A DNA stretch of 62,843 nucleotides from assembly GCF_006345805.1 (NCBI RefSeq), contig NW_021832009.1, positions 1-62,843 on the forward strand, read 5' to 3'. The stretch is from Octopus sinensis (lineage: Eukaryota). Made by a program: the position numbers and the translations under genes. Positions 1 to 62,184 of this stretch are shown here, in pieces (the stretch's first letter is position 1; every line of letters starts with the position of its first letter). The notes under the pieces were generated by a model that was not told the DNA's origin, made no database searches, and saw nothing but the letters and a program-made list of their open reading frames with translations.

Positions 1-794
1 GCAACTTTGATGGGATGGGGCATGTCGATCATATCGACTCCAATAATATGACTGGTAATGGAATGAAGGGCAAAGCTGATCTCTGTGCAATTTGAACTCA
101 GAACATAAAGAGTCGGAAAAAATACTGCTAAATATTTTTGTCCGACATGCTAACGCTTCTTAACAGATTAAAGGTAATTCGAAGATAGATTTGTAACCGA
201 ATGTGCATAGAATCGAATTAACCTCTAAAGACAACCAACGGCCTACGAATATGATGCTAGATACGTTATGTTCGGCATATTACCATTCAAATTTTTACAA
301 AAGTCAATAACCTGTACCTAAGAGTTCAATCTAAATATGGATTTACAAAAGTCAACATGATTATATATTTGTCTTCAAATATATTTTCCTAAAATTTAAT
401 CAATCACTAAAATAAAACTTGCACAATTTATGTAACTACCATCTTGTACTTCAGATCAATCACTTTTAATAACTATTCCTGTAAGAGAAAAATTGATAGA
501 CCACAGGAATTATGATGCCATTGTGACATAGTCCAGTGTCAACAGTGAGAAGTACTTTCGACTGAAAACATAACAAGGTACGCTGATGGAACTAACACGG
601 GTGAATACAGCAAGGATGAGATTGCGTCTTTAAATCGAAACAACAGACCATGATGCACATTAAATATGGGCTAGATTATTCAAGGATCTTGCAAGCATGC
701 GAAAGATTACCCTTCTAGACATTTTGATTACGAGAAAATATGGACGTATGTTTATTTGTATTTATACACACGCACACACATATATGTATATATG

Positions 795-1000
795 TAGAGA
801 ATTCACGAAAAAACAAAAACAAAAGACAAAGACAAGTGGTGTAGAAAACAAACAGATGTATTAGTATAACACTCAGGAATTGAAAAAGTCTTTTACGTTT
901 CGAGCCTACACTCTTCTACAGAAAGGTACACAGAAAGAAACAAGGAGAGAAACAAGGGAGAAAAAAATGTGTGTAGTGGCTAACGATCTATCATGGCAAC
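795..1000 (-). mobile_element. Short PLE-derived element, hammerhead family H1 (copy A)
   Basis: Minus strand: pyrimidine-rich 5' part, hammerhead fold at 890-925, downstream CCTGAGTG..TAATAC motif, 3' end runs into TA/CA repeats. Aligns by eye with 3030-3164, 39441-39531 and 60880-61068. Confidence 0.7.
890..925 (-). ncRNA. Minimal type I hammerhead ribozyme motif, variant core CUGUAGA
   Basis: Sense CTTT-CTGTAGA-A-GAGT(GTAG)GCTC-GAAA-C-GTA-AAAG. Stem I CUUU/AAAG, stem II 4 bp with one wobble, loopless palindromic stem III (ACGU), GUA triplet. Confidence 0.65.
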
Positions 1001-1450
1001 TGCCGGTATGTCTCTTCTATTTTATAATTGTTATAAGCCTTCCACTGAGGAGGAAACCGGTTTCCAACAAAGACGCAAGACTCCATCTTTGGGATGTATG
1101 TGTGCATGTATGTATGTATGTATGATATAAACAGTTGTACATTTTTTACGAAGTTTGGTATTCTTGGATACGAGTTTGTGCGTGTATGTGTGTGTTTGAG
1201 TATATATAGTTGAGTGTATCTGTATATATGTAATATATATATATATATATGTGTGTGTGTATGTATATAGATATATGTGTGTGTGTATATATATATATAT
1301 ATACATCTTTATAAATATATAAGTATGTGAGTACATGCATATATATATGTATATATATATTTAATACAATTATGCATGCACATACATCTGTGTCAATATA
1401 TGAATATGTATAAACACACTTACATATGGATGTATATATATATGTATATG

Positions 1451-3029: not shown

Positions 3030-3164
3030 CACACAAACCTTTCTGCCGAAGATCGTAGGGTCGAAACGTCAAAGCCTTTTCTATTATTCCCGAGCGACAA
3101 ACTCATATACTTAGATGTCGTTCCCTCACCTCTCCGTCTTTCATTTTCTATAAATTTAAACTAT
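3030..3164 (+). mobile_element. Short PLE-derived element, family H1 (copy B)
   Basis: Hammerhead fold, then CCCGAGCG..TATAC motif and 3' end ..TAAATTTAAACTAT adjoining (CT)n/(TA)n. Similar to copy F. Confidence 0.65.
3039..3074 (+). ncRNA. Minimal type I hammerhead motif, variant core CUGCCGA
   Basis: CTTT-CTGCCGA-A-GATC(GTAG)GGTC-GAAA-C-GTC-AAAG. All stems pair; GUC triplet. Confidence 0.65.
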
Positions 3165-16224: not shown

Positions 16225-16625
16225 CTCTCTTTTACTTGTTTCAGTCATTTGACTGTGACCATGCTGAAGCACCACCTTTAGTCGAGGAAATCGACCCTAG
16301 GACATATTTTTTGTAAGCCTAGTACTTATTCTATCGGACTCTTCTGCCGAACCGCTCCGTTACGGGGACGTAAATACACAAGCATCGGTTTTCAAGCGAT
16401 GTTGACGGGGAGACAAATACAGACACACAAACACACACATATATATGCATATACATAAATACGACGGGTTTCTTTCAGTTTCCGTCTACCAAATCCATTC
16501 ATAACGCTTTGGTCGGCCCTGAGGTTTTAGTAAAAGACACTTGCCCAACATGCCACGCAGTGGAACTGAACCCATAACCACGTGGTTGGCAAGCAAGGTA
16601 CTTACCACACAGCTACTCCTGCGCC
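16225..16625 (-). mobile_element. tRNA-derived SINE group A, full length
   Basis: Reverse complement of GGCGCAGGAGTAGCTGTGTGGTAAG..GGTTCAGTTCC..TTGGGCAAGTGTCTT..ATGACTGAAACAAGTAAAAGAG. Confidence 0.9.
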
Positions 16626-25121: not shown

Positions 25122-25524
25122 TACTCTTTACTCTTTTACTTGTTTCAGTCATTTGACTGCGGCCATGCTGGAGCACCGCCTTTACTCGAGCAACTCAACC
25201 CCGGGACTTATTTTTTTGTAAGCCCAGTACTTATTCTATCGGTCTCTTTTGCCGAACCGCTAAGTAACGGGGACATAAACACACAAGCATCGGTTGTCAA
25301 GCAATGCTAGGGGGACAAACACAAATACACAAACACACACACATATATATATACATATATACGAAGGGCTTCTTTCAGTTTCCGTCTACCAAATCCACTC
25401 ACAAGGCTTTGGTCGGCCCGAGGCTATAGTAGAAGACACTTTCCCAAGGTTCCACGCAGTGGGACTGAACCCGGAACCATGTGGTTGGTATACAAGCTAC
25501 TTACCACACAGCCACTCCTGCGCC
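25122..25524 (-). mobile_element. tRNA-derived SINE group A, full length
   Basis: Near-identical to the reverse complement of 50967-51392, including the (AAAGAGT)n tail. Confidence 0.92.
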
Positions 25525-25914
25525 TCTTCTATTCATCTTCGTTCAAGTTTTGGCGAGACATAGATATATATATATTTGGAATACGAAAGCACTGCAATCC
25601 TTACAAGGACTTCAGTAGCATTTACCGTTTTCATGGAGGTTTTCGTCGCATGGCACTGGCCAGGTTCCAATAATGGCACATATAAAATGCTGTAGATATA
25701 ATTGTATGCGTAAAATCATTTTAACATGTTTTTCAAGGAGAAAATTTTACTTCCTTACAATTCCAGCAGAATATTCTACTGAGATTATATATTATTAGCT
25801 CTCTCGCTTTTGCGCATGTGCAGTAACTTGGCCAACGGCGTAATGCCAGGTCGATGTTATTGCATGCTATCAGTTGAAAGCGATATTATCGGTTAAACAG
25901 TGAGTAAAGCAAAT

Positions 25915-29010: not shown

Positions 29011-29200
29011 TACACAAGACCATTTCAGGATTACTATATGAATAGCAAAGAAGTACTTTGTATCTCACAATACGTCACAGATTTATAACAAATAACAAAG
29101 AGCTATCAATATCATTGACTTGCAAAACACATGTGAGCATAGGACTGATAGAAGCTAGTGATTTTATTATGTATGCAACAGTCAACTTTGCAGTAAATCA

Positions 29201-29603
29201 GGCGCTGGAGTGGCTGTGTAGGAAGTAGCTGGCTTACCAACCACATGGTTCCGGGTTCAGTCCTACTGCGTGGCACCTTGGGAAAGTGTCTTCTACTATA
29301 GCCTCGGGCCGGCCAAAACCTTGTGAGTGGATTTGGCAGACGTAAACTGAAAGAAGCACGTCGTATATATGTATGTATGTGTATATGTTCGTGTGTCAGT
29401 TTGTCCCACACTAAGAATCGCTGGATAACCGATGCTGGTGTGTTTACGTCCCCGTAACTTAGCGATTCGGCAAAAATGACCGATAGAATAAGTACTACGC
29501 TTACAAAGAATAAGTCCTGGGGTCGGTTTGCTCGAGTAAGGGCGGTGCTCCTGCATGGCCGCAGTCAAATGACTGAAACAAGTTAAAGAATAAAAATGAG
29601 TAA
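29201..29603 (+). mobile_element. tRNA-derived SINE group A, full length
   Basis: GGCGCTGGAGTGGCTGTG..GGTTCAGTCC..GCACCTTGGGAAAGTGTCTT (CORE-like segment)..ATGACTGAAACAAG. Confidence 0.9.
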
Positions 29604-31733: not shown

Positions 31734-31910
31734 TAATCCAAACAAGAAAACAAAAAGACAACACGCGAGGATGTGGAACAAATAAAGTATTATTGGACGC
31801 TCAGGAAAAGAGGGAAGAAGGAGGGTATGACGTTTCGAGCAGAGCTCTTTGTCGGAAACATAGGAGAAAGAAAGATCCCGAGGTAGGAGGACAGAGGGAA
31901 AAAAATGCAA
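31729..31910 (-). mobile_element. Short PLE-derived element, hammerhead family H2 (copy C)
   Basis: Hammerhead-like fold at 31825-31859 (GTTT-CCGACAA-A-GAGC(TCT)GCTC-GAAA-C-GTC-ATAC), CCTGAGCG..TAATAC motif, 3' end fused to a long (TA)n. Confidence 0.65.
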
Positions 31911-39088: not shown

Positions 39089-39115
39089 ATATATATATAT
39101 ATATATCTATATATA

Positions 39116-39277
39116 TATATTGTATACAGGGCATTATTACACATAAATGCCTCACGCTAAGAGGGACATAAGTCATTACTACCAAAATTTAACTAATCGT
39201 ACCCAAATTTTGGTAGTAATGACTTATGTCCCTCTTAGCGGAGGCATTTATGTGTATAATGCCCTCTATACAATATA
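39116..39277. repeat. Inverted repeat, ~74-bp arms, 14-nt spacer
   Basis: 39116-39190 is the near-exact reverse complement of 39205-39277. Confidence 0.9.
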
Positions 39278-39401
39278 AATTAATATTTTCAAAAGGAGAA
39301 AAATTATTTTCGAATTTTTTTCTCTTATGAGGTTTTTCACGCTAACTACCTGATAATTTCTTGTTAAGATTCCTTATTAAGAAGTTATCCTTAATTGTCA
39401 A

Positions 39402-39434
<33 letters not shown>

Positions 39435-39479
39435 TATTTACACATCCTTTATTTTCTCTCCTTGTTTCTTTTTGTGTTC

Positions 39480-39515
39480 GTTTCTGTGGAAGAACTTAGG
39501 CTCGAAACGTTAAAG
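39480..39515 (+). ncRNA. Hammerhead motif family H1 (copy D), core CUGUGGA
   Basis: GTTT-CTGTGGA-A-GAAC(TTAG)GCTC-GAAA-C-GTT-AAAG, one mismatch in stem II. Flanks 39441-39531 match copy A. Confidence 0.55.
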
Positions 39516-41435
39516 ACTTTTTCACTTCCCGGCATGAAAAACGAAAAGCCATGGCTTGGATAGGCAGATGACGTGGCATGACTGGAGCTAAGAAACATCA
39601 ACTCTATCTGCCATGAAAAGAGGAGATAGAATGATAACAACAACTTCTAATGACATCATTTTACTACAAAGATCCATGCAAAGTTTTTAAAATTTTACCT
39701 GAATAGATAACAACAAAACATTATGTTATTCACTCATTTTTCCTAAGAGAATCCCGAAGGATGTGAGAAATTTTCTCATACAAAATTAATCTTGTTTTGA
39801 ACATCAATGTCCATTTTAAACCGAGGTTCATTTCCAGTTTTTCTTGGGTCAACCGAAGTGAAACGAATTTTCACCGCAAAGAGATCATTGTCGCATATAG
39901 GCTTTATTTTTCTTAGGCAGTCGTCCCAACAACACAAGGTATCGCTTCTTAAATCGATAATACTTAAACGCATAGTCTGGTACCGATTTACATCCGAGAT
40001 AATCGTTCCGTCTCTAACAACCAAGTCTCCTTCAAATTCATATTAAATATTACGTTACCTTCTTAAATAATAAAGCCCCGTTGGAGTTCCTTGGCAATGG
40101 CATAGATGACAGACTTGTCATCATTGGAATCCCTTTGAATGTATATCTGTTCACTCAGGGTGGATTTGGGATTAAACAACAATTAAATATATTTACTGTT
40201 CAGTGGACAATTGAGAATTTGCATCACAGAGTAGGTAATTTGAAGTCGTTAGTTTCAAATTAGAGACTGATTTTGGCACAAAATTCTATCGTTCATTTTC
40301 TAAATGCAATTGGAACGTGACAAAAGAAATACCAGCTATGTGGTTAGGTTGATTTACTTGAGACGACACATCAGCCTACAAACTTACAGTGTTTGTATAC
40401 TCAATATTCGGCGGTTTTTCTGTCACCACGCCCATTTTTATTTTCGATATCCCTTTTTCTTTTCTCACTCTCTTTCCTCCAGCTGTTTATTTATCCCCCA
40501 GTTTTCGCGATCCTGATGTAAAGAAATAGAATTCTTTCTTTGACTAGCATTTCTTTGATTCTCTGATGTTTTCTCTCCCTACGTCTGAAGAAGTTACTAC
40601 TTTCACTATATAACTTACATCTACACTCACACAAGAACATACACAAACTTTCTTTACCCTTCCCCTTCTCTATCCCTCTCGTTCTCACTCTCAGAAACAT
40701 ACCTTCTCTAACGCACACAATCGGTCTCTCTCACCTCCCATTCTCTCGCTCTCTCAAACACATACACACACTCACTCCCACAAACAAACATTAACTTCCT
40801 TTATATTCACACCTCGTTCCTCCAAACTTCAGTTTCTCTTCTTATTTATTGACCAAAATCCAAACCGAAACAAAATGAAAAACTATTTGTAAGAAATAAT
40901 ATTTCATATACAACCCTACCTCATCCACATTTTCAAACTCAATACAAGTCCATTAATTATATCGTCAGTTTTGCAAATATTTTATTCCATGAAACACCAT
41001 ATTTTTTTTTTACATTTTTTCTTATTTCTTTATTTTTTAAAATTAAATTTTACTTCTCATTCTTTTCACTTTTACCTAGCGCGCTTTCACGTCCAATTAT
41101 ATGTGTTTTGTTGATTTTAAACATAAAAAATATACGTATATGTTATTCCTCAGAATACATAAATATATTTTTTTTAAATCCACAAAATGCAGTTGTTTCA
41201 TAGTGAAATTTCAATGGAGTTAGGTCTCCAATTTCCACCATTTTCTCTATTCTATTTATCACTGTCCTCATTCAAAGACAGTAGCAATCTGCCGTAATTG
41301 TTATACCAAATATCTTCGCAAAACTCATTCACTATCACTCAGTCAGATCTTTTGATCCCACCATTTCTTTTTCATAATATACTTCTTTTTGTCTGGGCGA
41401 GTACAGAATTAATATTATTATTATTATTATTATTA

Positions 41436-41875
41436 CTTTTTTTTTCTTCTTCTTTCAAATTTGCTTCCATTTCTTGCCGAGTGTCTTCCCGACTCCTAGG
41501 GCAAAGAAACTCATAGTATACATTGGTAGGCCATTAAACCAAACTCAGTAGTTCGTTAACTTAAAAAAAAAATTTTTTTTAAGTTAAATTAAAATACATG
41601 AGCAGCAATGCTCTTCTCAATACGTGTGATGTACCAGTTAAGACAATCTTTTGCACTTCTTGCAGGGATGGTAAGCCAGGGATCATTCTCATATAATTTT
41701 CGGTTCCCTTCTTGATTATTCCTAGTGCTCTTACGATCACTGGTATTGTAACCGCCTTGAGATGCCACATTTTCTCAATTTCAATGAGTAGGTCTTTATA
41801 TTTTCTGAGCTTGTCAAACTCTTTTGCTGAGATATTATGATCACAGGGAATGCTCATGTTGATCAATAAGCAAAC

Positions 41876-41877
<2 letters not shown>
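41436..41877 (-). mobile_element. Dong/R4-clade LINE, 5'-truncated 3' end
   Basis: Restriction-like-endonuclease C-terminus SIPCDHNISAKEFDKLRKYKDLLIEIEKMWHLKAVTIPVIVRALG..QKIVLTGTSHVLRRAL plus 3' UTR, with (TAA)n on both sides. Confidence 0.88.
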
Positions 41878-41912
<35 letters not shown>

Positions 41913-42870: not shown

Positions 42871-43860
42871 ACCAACTGAATTGCATTTTATTTCACTTTC
42901 TAAAGGGATCTCAACCAGGAACTTAAGGCAAATATATATTGGATGGAGCGAAACTGACGTAGAATGGTCGCTGTTAATGCCCACACAATGTTTTGAGTTT
43001 CATAGATTGTGGATTTCTCAGGAATATTGTCAAAAAATTTGTCGGTACGTTTCTTGATCATTTCCAGTGTACCTACAACAAAACGGGTGGTTTTGGTTTC
43101 TTCTTCTTCTTCTTCTTCTTCTTGTTTGCATATGCACTCATAGGATTAGATATTTGGATAATAAAAGGTCTTAACATCGGGCTACGGCTGTTTTCTGTAG
43201 TTGTCCTAAACTGGGTTTTATGCCTATTTCCTCTATCAATATGTTTAGATCTTTAGAGATAGTTCCCAATGCACCAACATCTACTGGAATGTATTTTACC
43301 CGCTATTTACCTGCAATTCACTGGCTAGATCAATAGCTGGTACTTTGTTATTTTTTCTATACCTTTCCTATTGATTTTTTTCATGATTTGGAACTGTAAA
43401 TCAATCATCAGGCACTTTCTGGTCTCTTTACATACTACTACAAAATCAGGCCTTCTAGCTTCTATTACTCTTTCAGTTTGATTGCTAAAGTCCCTCAACA
43501 TCTTGCATTTCTTACTTACTAGTACTTTATTAGATTCATGTTCATACCATTTATTAGTGCGTTCAAATCCTAGCTTTTTACATAACCCCCAGTGGTTTAC
43601 TCTCCCTAGGTTGTCATGTCTTGTATTATTTCTGTACCAGCATGCCACATTCACTTACTCTTTGAGTAAACCCATGACCTACTTGCTTTTTGTCTATCTT
43701 GGATTTTATCGAATTAGTCCTTAATGCTTGGACTTATGCAGCTAAAACAAACTTTCTGCCTCCATTTTTAGCTTTTATTTCTGCAACCATAGCTATGTCT
43801 CACTACTACAATTTCCTGCGACTATCTTTAGGAATATACCATGCAACGCCTTCTACTACA
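42871..43860 (-). mobile_element. Dong/R4-clade LINE 3' fragment
   Basis: RHDNLGRVNHWGLCKK..KWYEH..RDFSNQTERVIEARRPDFVVVCK..CLMID and IPVDVGALGTISKDL; 3' UTR ends in (TAA)n. Confidence 0.88.
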
Positions 43861-44046: not shown

Positions 44047-44565
44047 CCAACTGAATTGCATTTAATTTCACTTTCTAACCGGATCTCAACCAGGAACTTA
44101 AGGCACATATATATTGGATGGAGCGAAACTGACGTAGAATGGTCGTTTGTTTTAATCGTAGGGACGTTTTATTGTGTTGCTTTTCATAAACTTTCTTCAC
44201 TATTACCTACATAGGAGTCTGTATCTACTCTAGCTAACTCCCTGCAGTCTAATACTGATTTTAACCCTCTTCCGCCTTCCTTTCTACGTAAGTATAACCT
44301 TGCTACTTCTGCCCTTGGGTGGAGTCCTCCATTCATATTGAAATTCTTCCTTGTTCTTCAGTCTAGCTTTGCTAATTCAGCTTTTATTCAATATACAAAA
44401 GCTGCTGAATATCTAAGTGATGACACTGCCCACGTATTTACAGCCTTCACTAAATTTGGACCACTTATCATTGACATCGTTAGCTTCCTCACCCTTCTAG
44501 TGTAATCCTTCTTAATTTTCTTTCTCATTTCTATAGTTAGTACTCTGACAGCTTCCAGCACTGCT
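44047..44565 (-). mobile_element. Dong/R4-clade LINE fragment (post-RT region joined to 3' UTR)
   Basis: YTRRVRKL..NLVKAVNTWAVSSLRYSAA..GGLHPRAEVARLYLRRKEGGRGL. 44047-44150 is nearly identical to 42871-42972. Confidence 0.88.
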
Positions 44566-44624
44566 TTGTTATTATTATTATTTGCATTATTATTATTATT
44601 GTTGGTTGTTGTTGTTGTTATTAC

Positions 44625-44660
<36 letters not shown>

Positions 44661-44679
44661 TATTATTATTATTATTATT

Positions 44680-44805
44680 CTGTTTGACTTTTGCTTTATA
44701 TTTGTACAAGTTGGCTCCAAGTCTCACCCAGAGACCTCAAGAGACAATAGGGTTGGAAGTTCATGTTGTTGTTATGCCTAGTGTGCCATATATTTGGGGG
44801 GTGGG
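44680..44805 (-). mobile_element. Probable Dong/R4 3' UTR stub (another family)
   Basis: Minus strand GAGGTCTCTGGGTGAGACTTGG..AAACAGAATAATAA resembles the 3'-terminal blocks of the neighbouring copies and ends in (TAA)n. Confidence 0.55.
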
Positions 44806-48981: not shown

Positions 48982-49570
48982 TATACATATATATACATAT
49001 ATATATATATACATATCTATATATATGTACATATACATATATTTATCTATATATACATATATATTTATACATAGTTATACGTATATATATATTATATATA
49101 TACACACAAAAATCTAAAGATATATATAGATATATTTACATATATAAGTATGTGTGTATATATATATATGTATATATATATGATATATATATAATATTTC
49201 ATATATATATATATATATAAATGTAGGCAGAGTTAGAGGTTGAAAGAGTGATTCATATTTGTTTTTGTGTCCTTCATTTTGATTTTGTCATTTTGATATT
49301 TTGTTGTTTTTTCAATGTGAGAGTTTTTCCCTACTTTTCTTTAATATATCGAACTCTATCAGAGTTGTATGTCTTCCCTTTAGCAGTGCGTAGTATCTCC
49401 TCTTATATTTATTTTGGTCTGTCAGAATCCGTGACAGTAGCTCTGAATCTGATCGTAGTATATTAGTTCCTACGGGCACTTATACTAGCCATGGTCAAAA
49501 TTCATCGAACTAGTGCTATTTCTCCCACCCTCTTCTGCAGTGCAAGAAAAAAAGAAATATATATATTTAT

Positions 49571-49752
49571 ATCGTCAATTCAAAAAACTCAGAGAAAAAT
49601 AAAAAATGACTAAAACGTGAGGACGTAGCATAAGCAATGTATTAACAACGCGCTCAGAGAAAGAAAAGAGTAGTAGTTTTACGTTTCAAGCTCAGCTCCT
49701 CTTCGGAAAGAGGAAAAACAGCTAAGTCTAAGAAGGTGGAAAAAATGCCAAT
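49571..49752 (-). mobile_element. Short PLE-derived element, hammerhead family H2 (copy E)
   Basis: Fold at 49676-49710, CTTT-CCGAAGA-G-GAGC(TGA)GCTT-GAAA-C-GTA-AAAC, followed by CTGAGCG..TAATAC. TA repeats on both sides. Confidence 0.6.
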
Positions 49753-50966: not shown

Positions 50967-51392
50967 GGCGCAGGAGTGGCTTTGTGTAAGTAGCTTGCTA
51001 ACCAACTACATGGTTCCGGGTTCAGTCCCACTGCGTGGCATCTTGGGCAAGTGTCTTCTGCTATAGCCCCGGGCCGACCAAAACCTTCTGAGTAGATTTG
51101 GTAGACGGAAACTGAAAGAAGCCTGTCGTATATATGTATATATATATAAGTGTGTGTGTATATGTTTGTGTGTCTGTGTTTGTCCCCCTAGCATTGCTTG
51201 ACAACCGATGCTGGTGTGTTTATGTCCCCGTCACTTAGCGGTTCGGCAAAAGAGACCGAGAGAATAAGTACTGGGCTTACAAAGAATAAGTCCCGGGGGT
51301 CGATTTGCTCGACTTAAGGCGGTGCTCCAGCATGGCCGCAGTCAAATGACTGAAACAAGTAAAAGAGTAAAAGAGTAAAAGAGTAAAGAGTA
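50967..51392 (+). mobile_element. tRNA-derived SINE group A, full length
   Basis: A/B-box head, CORE-like TTGGGCAAGTGTCTT, internal (TA)/(TG), (AAAAGAGT)n tail. Confidence 0.93.
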
Positions 51393-60400: not shown

Positions 60401-60879
60401 CTGTTTTTTTTATCTCTCTGCTTTTCTCTCTCTCTCTCTCTTTCTGTCTTTCTTTCTATCTTGCTCTATTTCTTTCTCCCTCTCCCTATCTCCCATTCTC
60501 TCTCTCCCTCCCTCCCTCTTAAACATACACCCCCTCCCTCACGGCCTCACATACAAGTTTCACATGAGCGACCCAACGGAAATTCACACGCACCAACTTC
60601 CGCCCGACCCAGTTACTTTTCAACGCCATGACACCGCACACACGTACGCTCATTTATACACCATCTTTTATCTTATACATGTTTCAGTCACTCGACTGCG
60701 GCCATACTAGAATATTGCATTGAAGAACTTTTAGTCAAATGAGTCGCCCTTGGACTTATGTCTTTTAAAAGACGGGTACATATTCTATCGGTCCTTTATC
60801 ACGAACCACCAATATTTTATTATTATCTCCCCTTCTTCCTAGCTCTCCTGTCAAACTATTTTCTCCCAACCAGTCGCAA

Positions 60880-61065
60880 TGATTGATCACTAAATCCACA
60901 ATCTTTTTATTCTCTCTGTTTATTTCCTCATATTCCTTTCTGTTGAAGAGAGTAAGCTGAAAACGTAAAAGACTTCCCCTCTTTTCCGAGCGACAATCTA
61001 ATACACCTTAATTGTTGTTCATACACTTGCCTACGTCTTTTTACGAAATTTCTGTAAATTTCAAC

Positions 61066-61068
<3 letters not shown>
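60880..61068 (+). mobile_element. Short PLE-derived element, family H1 (copy F, degenerate hammerhead)
   Basis: 60936-60971 CTTT-CTGTTGA-A-GAGA(GTAA)GCTG-AAAA-C-GTA-AAAG; CCGAGCG..CTAATAC motif; 3' end TAAATTTCAACTAT joined to (TA)n. Confidence 0.6.
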
Positions 61069-61116
<48 letters not shown>

Positions 61117-61523
61117 CATGTATATATAGCATGTATATATACATGTAGATGTAGGTACGTACATATATGTTTGTATGTATGCATATATTTTATTTATTAC
61201 ACTATTGTATGACTGAGCGCCTTCGCGTCGATTCAATTCGATTCGTTTGGTTTCATTTCTTCTCCTTCTCTAATCTGGTTTATATATAATTATATATATA
61301 ATATATATACTATATATCTATATAACTAAATAATAATATAAATAAATATTAGGGAATAAATCCAAATTACAAGAAAAATCAGATTTAAGATTGAATCCAA
61401 TTTTATAATAAATATTATATTATATCAAATTAGAGACAAACCCACTATTATGCAAATCAAACAAAGAAAGACTTAAGCCAATACATAAAATAATTTATAT
61501 AAATTAAAATTTAACATATGAAT

Positions 61524-61574
61524 AACCACTACGATCGTTTCGTGTCAGCACATCTTAGAATTCTTCAGGTGGTT
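61524..61574 (-). ncRNA. Type I hammerhead motif, canonical core (left arm, 1-nt deletion in stem II)
   Basis: Sense AACCAC-CTGAAGA-ATTC..GACAC-GAAA-CGATCG-TA-GTGGTT. Confidence 0.65.
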
Positions 61575-61626
61575 TCAAAACCTTCTTAGCGAGTTTTAAA
61601 TTATGAACTCGCTAAGAGGGTTTTGA

Positions 61627-61678
61627 AACCACCTGAAGAATGTCTAAGATGTGCTGACACGAAACGATCGTAGTGGTT
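61627..61678 (+). ncRNA. Type I hammerhead ribozyme motif, canonical core
   Basis: AACCAC-CTGAAGA-ATGTC(TAAGATGTGCT)GACAC-GAAA-CGATCG-TA-GTGGTT. Stem I 6 bp, stem II 4 bp with an A-C mismatch at its base, palindromic stem III ACGATCGT, GUA triplet. Confidence 0.78.
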
Positions 61679-61777
61679 ATTCAATATGTTAAATTTTAAT
61701 TTATATAAATTATTTTATGTATTGGCTTAAGTCTTTCTTTGTTTGATTTGCATAATAGTGGTTTTGTCTCTAATTTG

Positions 61778-61824
<47 letters not shown>

Positions 61825-62184
61825 ATATAAACGACGAGCTTACTTCAGTTTCCGTCCACCAAAACTACTCAGAAGAATTTGGTCAGTCCGACTTTATGGC
61901 AAACTTGCCTAAGGTGCCAACACTGTGGGATCGAACAAAAAGTTGCCGGCGCCTACAAACTAAACATAAACGTCCACTGCTTGCACTTTCTCGAACTACA
62001 AACATAGATACACCACGGCATATAAATATAAACCCCTGCGTTTTCCTCTCTTTCTAACAACCCCATACAATAATATTCCCGAACCCAATGCCAATTTACT
62101 GTGTTAAAGTGTCCGACCGCTTCAGTGTTCGTTTTATGTATTCAAAACATTTTCGACTCTACCAATGCCTCTTTGCTTTTATAT

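Follow-up and report, generated by a model that had tools for sequence, protein, structure and literature searches.

The described systems closest to the repeat studied here include the minimal hammerhead ribozymes (min-HHRs) of Penelope-like elements (PLEs). According to the available text of Cervera and De la Pena (2014, PMC4209133), the PLE min-HHR consensus combines a U-rich flank, the box CUGANGAH, a G10.1-C11.1 pair, GAAAN, a palindromic 15.2-16.2, an NUH site and a short helix I; most PLE min-HHRs are single dispersed copies of low activity, and a U3-A8 core variant is described. The metazoan rows in the available part of its supplement all have A6. Hydra and Naiad families of PLEs, including families from Octopus, target (TA)n (Craig 2021, PMC8557442). 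The Hydra ribozyme lies about 100 nt from the 3' end of the element (e.g., at position 2403 of 2507; PMC8557442 supplement), and Naiad PLEs reach very high copy numbers without canonical hammerheads, as far as the text available of the same source goes. Non-LTR retrozymes, which are 170-400 nt non-coding units with a type I hammerhead, have been proposed to be non-autonomous PLE derivatives (available text of PMC7229834 and bioRxiv 10.64898/2026.07.22.740005). Position 6 is regarded as an invariant A, and the descriptors used for counting hammerheads have it built in.

The window, by which we mean the whole 62.8-kb stretch of DNA analysed here, is AT-rich, microsatellite-rich non-coding DNA. 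The original prediction placed four copies of a hammerhead-like motif in it, and all four 36-mers are present at the expected sites: copy A at 890..925 on the minus strand, and copies B, C and D at 3039..3074, 39480-39515 and 60936-60971 on the plus strand. Position 6 is a pyrimidine in each (U, C, U and U in copies A to D), position 7 is A, C, G and U, and position 17 is A, C, U and A, all as described. The sequence pattern proposed for the four copies is fully matched by A and B; C is damaged, and D departs from the pattern at G12 and in stem II. Copy A (position 6 at 918, position 7 at 917, position 17 at 894, minus strand) has a 4-bp stem I, the core CUG-U-A-GA, an extra A, a 4-bp stem II with a GUAG loop, and GAAA-C-GU-A. 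Its element, of about 200 nt (797..997, minus strand), consists of a 5' segment, a U-rich tract, the motif and a 3' segment of about 95 nt ending on a TA-rich microsatellite. A separate repeat of lower depth lies just upstream, at window 1030-1100. Copy B has the core CUG-C-C-GA and both stems intact; the 3' family segment extends to about 3189, followed by (TA)n, and its 5' flank is unlike that of the other copies. The element around copy C (39436..39558, plus strand) begins at a (TA)n run and is truncated in its 3' part; stems I and II of its motif, which has the core CUG-U-G-GA, each contain one mismatch. A self-complementary stretch of about 170 nt (39113-39280, 89%) lies just upstream of copy C. 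Copy D, in an element at 60875..61066 (plus strand) that ends on (TA)n, has the core CUG-U-U-GA, with G12 lost and the first stem II pair broken.

These copies represent one dispersed repeat of 150-200 nt, most copies of which end on (TA)n. Any two of copies A to D differ at 5-9 of 36 bases, and all other sites in the window are more than 13 mismatches away from each of the four 36-mers. The alignment of A with C extends over 77 nt at 88% (E 1e-22). The predicted number of copies proved too low, as two real members, E and F, had been missed. A five-copy profile search of the window returned a sixth member (E 1e-10) and the six-copy profile returned no more, for a total of six in 62.8 kb. Copy E (31825..31859, minus strand) has C4, keeps A6, has G8 changed to A and a 3-nt loop II, and continues into the family 3' segment to about 31733 and then (TA)n. 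Copy F (49676..49710, minus strand), whose element at about 49570-49750 lies between TA-rich runs, has the core CCG-A-A-GA and also a 3-nt loop II. Together, E and F form a sister branch, seen in two copies, with a CCG-A-N-GA core (U4C) and the shorter loop. None of the six window members has the canonical CUGA (four differ at position 6 and two at position 4), and the fold is intact in only two, A and B. The motif is the best conserved part of the repeat, with 22-31 of 35-36 bases identical between copies, compared with about 33-66% identity downstream of it and 19-77% upstream. Another abundant dispersed repeat in the window is SINE-like, 200-300 nt long with 70-90% identity, and has copies at 25127-25525, 29200-29589, 50986-51371, 16228-16454 and 60664-60807.

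A minimal-hammerhead descriptor with one core mismatch permitted was run at three stringencies, with 400 block-shuffled windows as controls. In the real window it recovered A and B at the strict setting and C only at the loosest, and missed D, while the shuffled windows gave no match at any of the three stringencies. We consider it very improbable that the repeat is a SINE with a Pol III B-box-like element and that its hammerhead likeness arose by chance. Short size and high copy number are as expected for a SINE, and the 3' strand of stem II together with GAAAC resembles what we take to be the B-box consensus at eight of nine positions. However, this explanation leaves unaccounted for the upstream CUG-N-N-GA box, both stems, the extra A and the free positions 7 and 17, and the empty shuffles argue against it. 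Similarly, ARAGORN predicted no tRNA genes in the window (decayed heads can escape it), and neither T-arm pairing nor a clear A box is visible by eye.

The architecture agrees with the published PLE min-HHR consensus except at position 6, as had been claimed. Shared with metazoan PLE min-HHRs (PMC4209133, available text) are the U-rich 5' flank, a 4-bp helix I, the extra nucleotide after A9, G10.1-C11.1, a loopless palindromic helix III (C15.2-G16.2), the NUH site and the mostly dispersed single copies. Unlike them, the repeat has U6 family-wide, C4 in the sister branch, a short helix II (4 bp) and no linked ORF among the frames scanned. The extra base between 9 and 10.1 is present in all six copies; G10.1-C11.1 is G-C in four, G.U in one and broken in one; and the GAAA box, palindromic 15.2-16.2 and NUH site occur together in five (D is without G12). 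In place of a CUGANGA box with invariant A6, the repeat has a U6 consensus.

Microsatellite insertion and a motif close to the 3' end are both found in the repeat. Insertion into (TA)n is shared with the (TA)n-targeting Hydra, Naiad and Neptune PLEs, and, as in Hydra, the motif lies about 100 nt from the 3' end (PMC8557442, available text): position 17 is 99-119 nt from the (TA) run in five of six copies, the exception being the truncated copy C. Hydra hammerheads differ from the motif in having canonical cores and a helix III of 3-4 bp (PMC8557442), and an 11-nt signature of the repeat did not occur in the available part of that paper's supplement, where a line break could hide one. With non-LTR retrozymes the repeat has in common the size and non-coding nature of the unit, the type I hammerhead and the proposed descent from PLEs, whereas retrozymes have canonical cores, are arranged in tandem and form circular RNAs, and the repeat occurs as dispersed (TA)n monomers with a variant core (PMC7229834; bioRxiv 10.64898/2026.07.22.740005, available text). 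No head-to-tail units of the retrozyme kind are found in the window, where the six copies are single, and the 5' loose ends of contigs are TA-rich. Given that no same-strand tandem pair occurs among the six dispersed copies in the window, a dimer, if any, would have to bring together two separate RNAs or arise within a multimeric intermediate.

A Pfam scan covered 225 of the 306 complex frames of at least 40 aa in the window (all 75 near copies and the 150 longest others). It gave no reverse transcriptase (RT) or GIY-YIG match in those 225, and five of them had weak matches, all under curated cut-offs. The link to PLEs rests on architecture, given that there is no PLE ORF remnant near any copy. 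In the proposal of a non-autonomous PLE carrying an A6-substituted hammerhead, the architecture and U6 stand, and both the link to a PLE ORF and use as a ribozyme are putative. Hammerhead ancestry of the repeat is very likely. The window also holds a broken non-LTR retrotransposon at 41582-41911 (minus strand), a 110-aa frame with 57-73% identity to 16 longer proteins, five of them with an RT domain, and related fragments near 43328-43654 and 44215-44723.

Variation at the level of the family was read from contigs of four of 24 runs, with three organism labels, aligned at 80% likeness or more to the 251-nt stretch 850-1100 around copy A, which includes other repeated parts. The contigs numbered 14733 in X1 (organism A, possibly the window's own source), 15940 in X8 and 1287 in X5 (both organism B), and 5111 in X13 (organism E). 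Differences were listed from 5% upward, and the shares given below, weighted by contig word depth, are approximate and biased to the reference letter; summed depth is not copy number. Copies of the E and F type are probably too unlike A to align across the core. The 5' edge of A-type copies near 997 shows as a fall in depth across two bins, 7-fold in X13 and about 40-fold in the other three runs, and loose contig ends at 997 are TA-rich in all four runs.

At position 6 (918), in a deeply covered bin, no letter other than U reaches 5% in any of the four runs, so every other letter, A included, is below 5% and U is at least 85%. This holds for A6 also in X5, which we took to be RNA by guess. The same absence of alternatives at 5% or above, again in four of four runs, is seen at C3, G5, G8, A9, G10.1, C11.1 and G12, and at A13-A15.1, G16.2 and U16.1. 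Position 7, in contrast, is U in 12-41%, G in 8-37% and C in 10-15% across runs, and position 17 is U in 1-48%, C in 0.3-6% and G in less than 5%. Given that U6 has no such alternative while the neighbouring position takes all four bases, CUGUNGA is the family consensus and not a product of decay, and variation is concentrated where the hammerhead leaves positions free. Five of the nine variant rows in the motif (910 excluded) fall on positions 7 and 17 (P 7e-6; P 3e-3 with one row per site dropped; P 6e-4 with loop II counted as free). The others are at 890 in stem I (G to U, 2-9%, partner unchanged), 897 (C15.2, 1.5-7%), 909 in the loop (5-26%) and 920 (U4 to A, 6.8%, X13 only). At row 910 copy A is itself the odd one out, as 85-98% of the aligned depth has C there.

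The consensus is therefore U6, not A6, in each of the four runs. The predicted core CUGYNGA was right about the substitution of A6, but at the family level the base is U rather than Y, with C below 5%. G17 below 5% in all four runs is in keeping with the expected conservation of H17, though this is a weak test because C17 is rare too. Loop II is conserved nearly as well as the core, so part of the motif's conservation may be owed to common descent or to the 80% likeness filter. The loose ends at 926 resemble the 5' flank of copy D, which indicates that more than one subfamily was sampled across position 6; the 30-90% of non-reference letters at position 7 indicates that the likeness filter does not hide single changes there. 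These limits of the method have little effect on the contrast among the neighbouring positions 6, 7 and 8. Low variation at the C11.1-G12 CpG was rejected as a sign of selection, since unchanged copies may be favoured by seeding and the depth is highest at that site.

The same data largely refute the idea that the consensus is A6 and that the copies decayed one by one, which we regard as hardly credible. Such decay does happen elsewhere, as in a metagenome contig described below, and two window members (E and F) keep A6. However, those two belong to a different branch that has C4, and A6 is below 5% in four runs for contigs that match copy A at 80% or more.

Outside the window, the first family pattern gave no match in viral contigs and none in metagenome contigs; a single match in a prokaryote genome (L001) was rejected as chance, as it lies inside a 321-aa ORF and has G at position 17. 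A looser U6 pattern also gave no match in viral contigs and found eight metagenome loci. Six of the eight were dismissed as chance, being on contigs of 52-73% GC, with long ORFs and without GUH plus stem I. The locus L008 was rejected as a relative of the family: its U6 motif (68-108, plus strand) is a decayed member of a family with A6 and has a CUGAUGA sister about 1 kb away (1042-1082, plus strand), and the repeat there is a PLE-type hammerhead with a small palindromic helix III. The other, L006 (1490-1533, minus strand), is a U6 motif with all parts of the minimal hammerhead, including a 6-bp stem I and a GUC site, and is present as a single copy with no sister in AT-rich non-coding DNA of another organism; it may be a decayed A6 copy. 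Neither L006 nor L008 extends the family.

Support for the fold was sought in the stems. In the six-copy alignment, 42 of 48 stem cells are paired (87.5%), compared with 23-50% when the alignment is slid. Two pairs show two-sided change, and the covariation score was reached by 86 of 500 shuffles. The four-run contig alignments contain no compensatory variant rows in stems I or II. Pairing is indeed kept (U.G) by the stem II changes reported for A and B, of which the one in A is private to that copy. The case for the structure is therefore made by its fit to the descriptor and by which positions vary freely, and not by covariation. No consistent extension of stem I was found in the six copies. 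Minimum-energy folds of the monomers and of A and B dimers did not include a hammerhead, and the folding z-scores of the seven motifs, one of them canonical, all lay between -1.3 and +1.4; since the canonical motif scores no differently, minimum-energy folding is uninformative here.

That a CUGANGA search would overlook the family was confirmed, in that the descriptor with CUGANGA misses these copies. Rfam reported no hammerhead among the 150 of 234 whole-window matches listed, nor in 28 matches over 60800-61900 (copy D) or three over 810-1010 (copy A). Rfam is blind to these forms, as it also missed a canonical pair at 61.5-61.7 kb. That pair lies in an inverted duplication centred near 61600 and consists of two type I hammerheads, at 61627-61678 (plus strand) and about 61524-61574 (minus strand), with CUGAAGA, a 6-bp stem I, a 4-bp palindromic helix III and a GUA site. 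The copy at 61627-61678 is followed, about 105 nt downstream, by a (TA)n run, a layout like that of Hydra-clade PLE ribozymes. Thus, ordinary A6 motifs coexist with the repeat in the same genome.

Natural and engineered changes in the CUGA turn suggest what U6 could mean for activity. The hammerhead of phage Bcep176, with a natural A6C, cleaves at less than 0.1 per min (Perreault 2011, PMC3088659) and prefers Mn2+, with about 0.3 per min at 1 mM and a range of 0.2-0.4 (Naghdi 2020, PMC7151607), according to the text available of these papers. It shares a natural change at position 6 with our repeat, but it is one phage sequence, with C rather than U and a full helix III, and its activity is measured, whereas the high-copy animal repeat is known here from sequence. 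A viroid U4C hammerhead, which has C4 as copies E and F do, is slower in vitro and sufficient in vivo, where it supports infection (cited in the available text of PMC3088659); the viroid has tertiary contacts, in contrast to the minimal genomic motif. In a pairwise mutational scan of a type III hammerhead, single and double CUGA-turn mutants had low activity, except for a C3:G8 swap, and no second mutation rescued CUGA-turn changes in the portion of that report available (PMC9901934). For PLEs, the Anolis hammerhead is cut only with its protein, uncut RNA is the main template in vitro, and cleavage is dispensable for insertion in vitro (PMC11167929, available text). Published changes at position 6 are harmful but not always fatal. 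No family-wide A6U hammerhead was found in the literature consulted, as far as its available text extends (including PMC6765202, PMC13282606 and PMC8967140), and "A6U" beside "hammerhead" in PMC11662667 refers to twister. The repeat was not found described as a ribozyme in the same literature. Lunse et al. 2017, which reportedly covers about 150,000 PLE-associated hammerhead variants, may bear on novelty, as may repeat libraries.

Taken together, the repeat is a real family with a U6 consensus and the anatomy of a PLE min-HHR in which one defining core base fails. We suspect, with a probability of roughly 55%, that it is a non-autonomous PLE derivative with an attenuated hammerhead that depends on dimerization and probably on protein. 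This reading draws on the slow A6C ribozyme, the U4C viroid, the low-activity CUGA-turn mutants and the protein-dependent Anolis PLE hammerhead. In this scenario, the high-copy family would derive from the terminal repeat (pLTR) of a PLE that inserts into (TA)n, and the founding master copy would have exchanged A6 for a U that was then kept as subfamilies diverged. The element would be transcribed, an autonomous PLE would supply the RT/GIY-YIG protein that copies it in trans, and two RNAs could pair via the ACGU palindrome to form helix III. The A6U change would weaken the CUGA turn, such that cleavage after GUH would be slow and need the PLE protein or particular ions. Selection may keep the fold and the catalytic guanines and tolerate or even favour low activity, given that uncut RNA could serve as template. 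In the C4 sister branch the same turn would have been weakened a second time and independently, and genomic copies C, D and E may have decayed since.

Ranked second, and to our minds a less probable though serious possibility, is that A6U in the founder killed the ribozyme, that the element could spread all the same because it can do without cleavage, and that the motif persists only as a PLE-protein binding site or template landmark, or through recent common descent. The low activity of CUGA-turn mutants (PMC9901934), PLE insertion in vitro with no need of cleavage (PMC11167929) and the great abundance of Naiad PLEs (PMC8557442), each on the available text, would all be compatible with a dead relic, as would conservation of loop II and covariation no higher than in shuffles. 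However, variation at positions 7 and 17 is the pattern expected from catalytic constraint, and G8, which adjoins position 7, stays fixed; the low share of G17 is in keeping with this, weakly so as C17 is also rare. Last of the three, and improbable in our view, is a fully active core in which U6 would be compensated by a contact between the GUAG loop II and the U-rich 5' flank or by a metal ion, with rates like those of A6 PLEs. The invariance of U6, like that of catalytic positions, next to a saturated position 7 would suit this explanation, and so would A6C cleavage at about 0.2-0.4 per min in Mn2+ (PMC7151607, available text). On the other hand, the pairwise scan, made on another hammerhead, found no CUGA-turn rescue (PMC9901934, available text), minimal PLE hammerheads that have A6 are themselves slow (PMC4209133, available text), and the lack of consistent stem I extension in six copies does not favour it.

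Only tentatively, and against our expectation, would we class CUGUNGA and CCGANGA as natural hammerhead subclasses that cleave efficiently with a rebuilt CUGA turn, in a repeat that is among the most abundant of the lineage. If they do, animal hammerhead counts based on CUGANGA would be far too low, and some PLE clades said to be without hammerheads may carry variant ones. With U6 fixed, the rest of the core kept and positions 7 and 17 varying, the family is a natural experiment on the purpose of PLE hammerheads, seeing that insertion in vitro can proceed without cleavage. If the repeat cleaves, the consensus for hammerheads has to be broadened, and a very large class of copies in genomes has gone unseen; should it not cleave, the fold would be kept for something besides catalysis.
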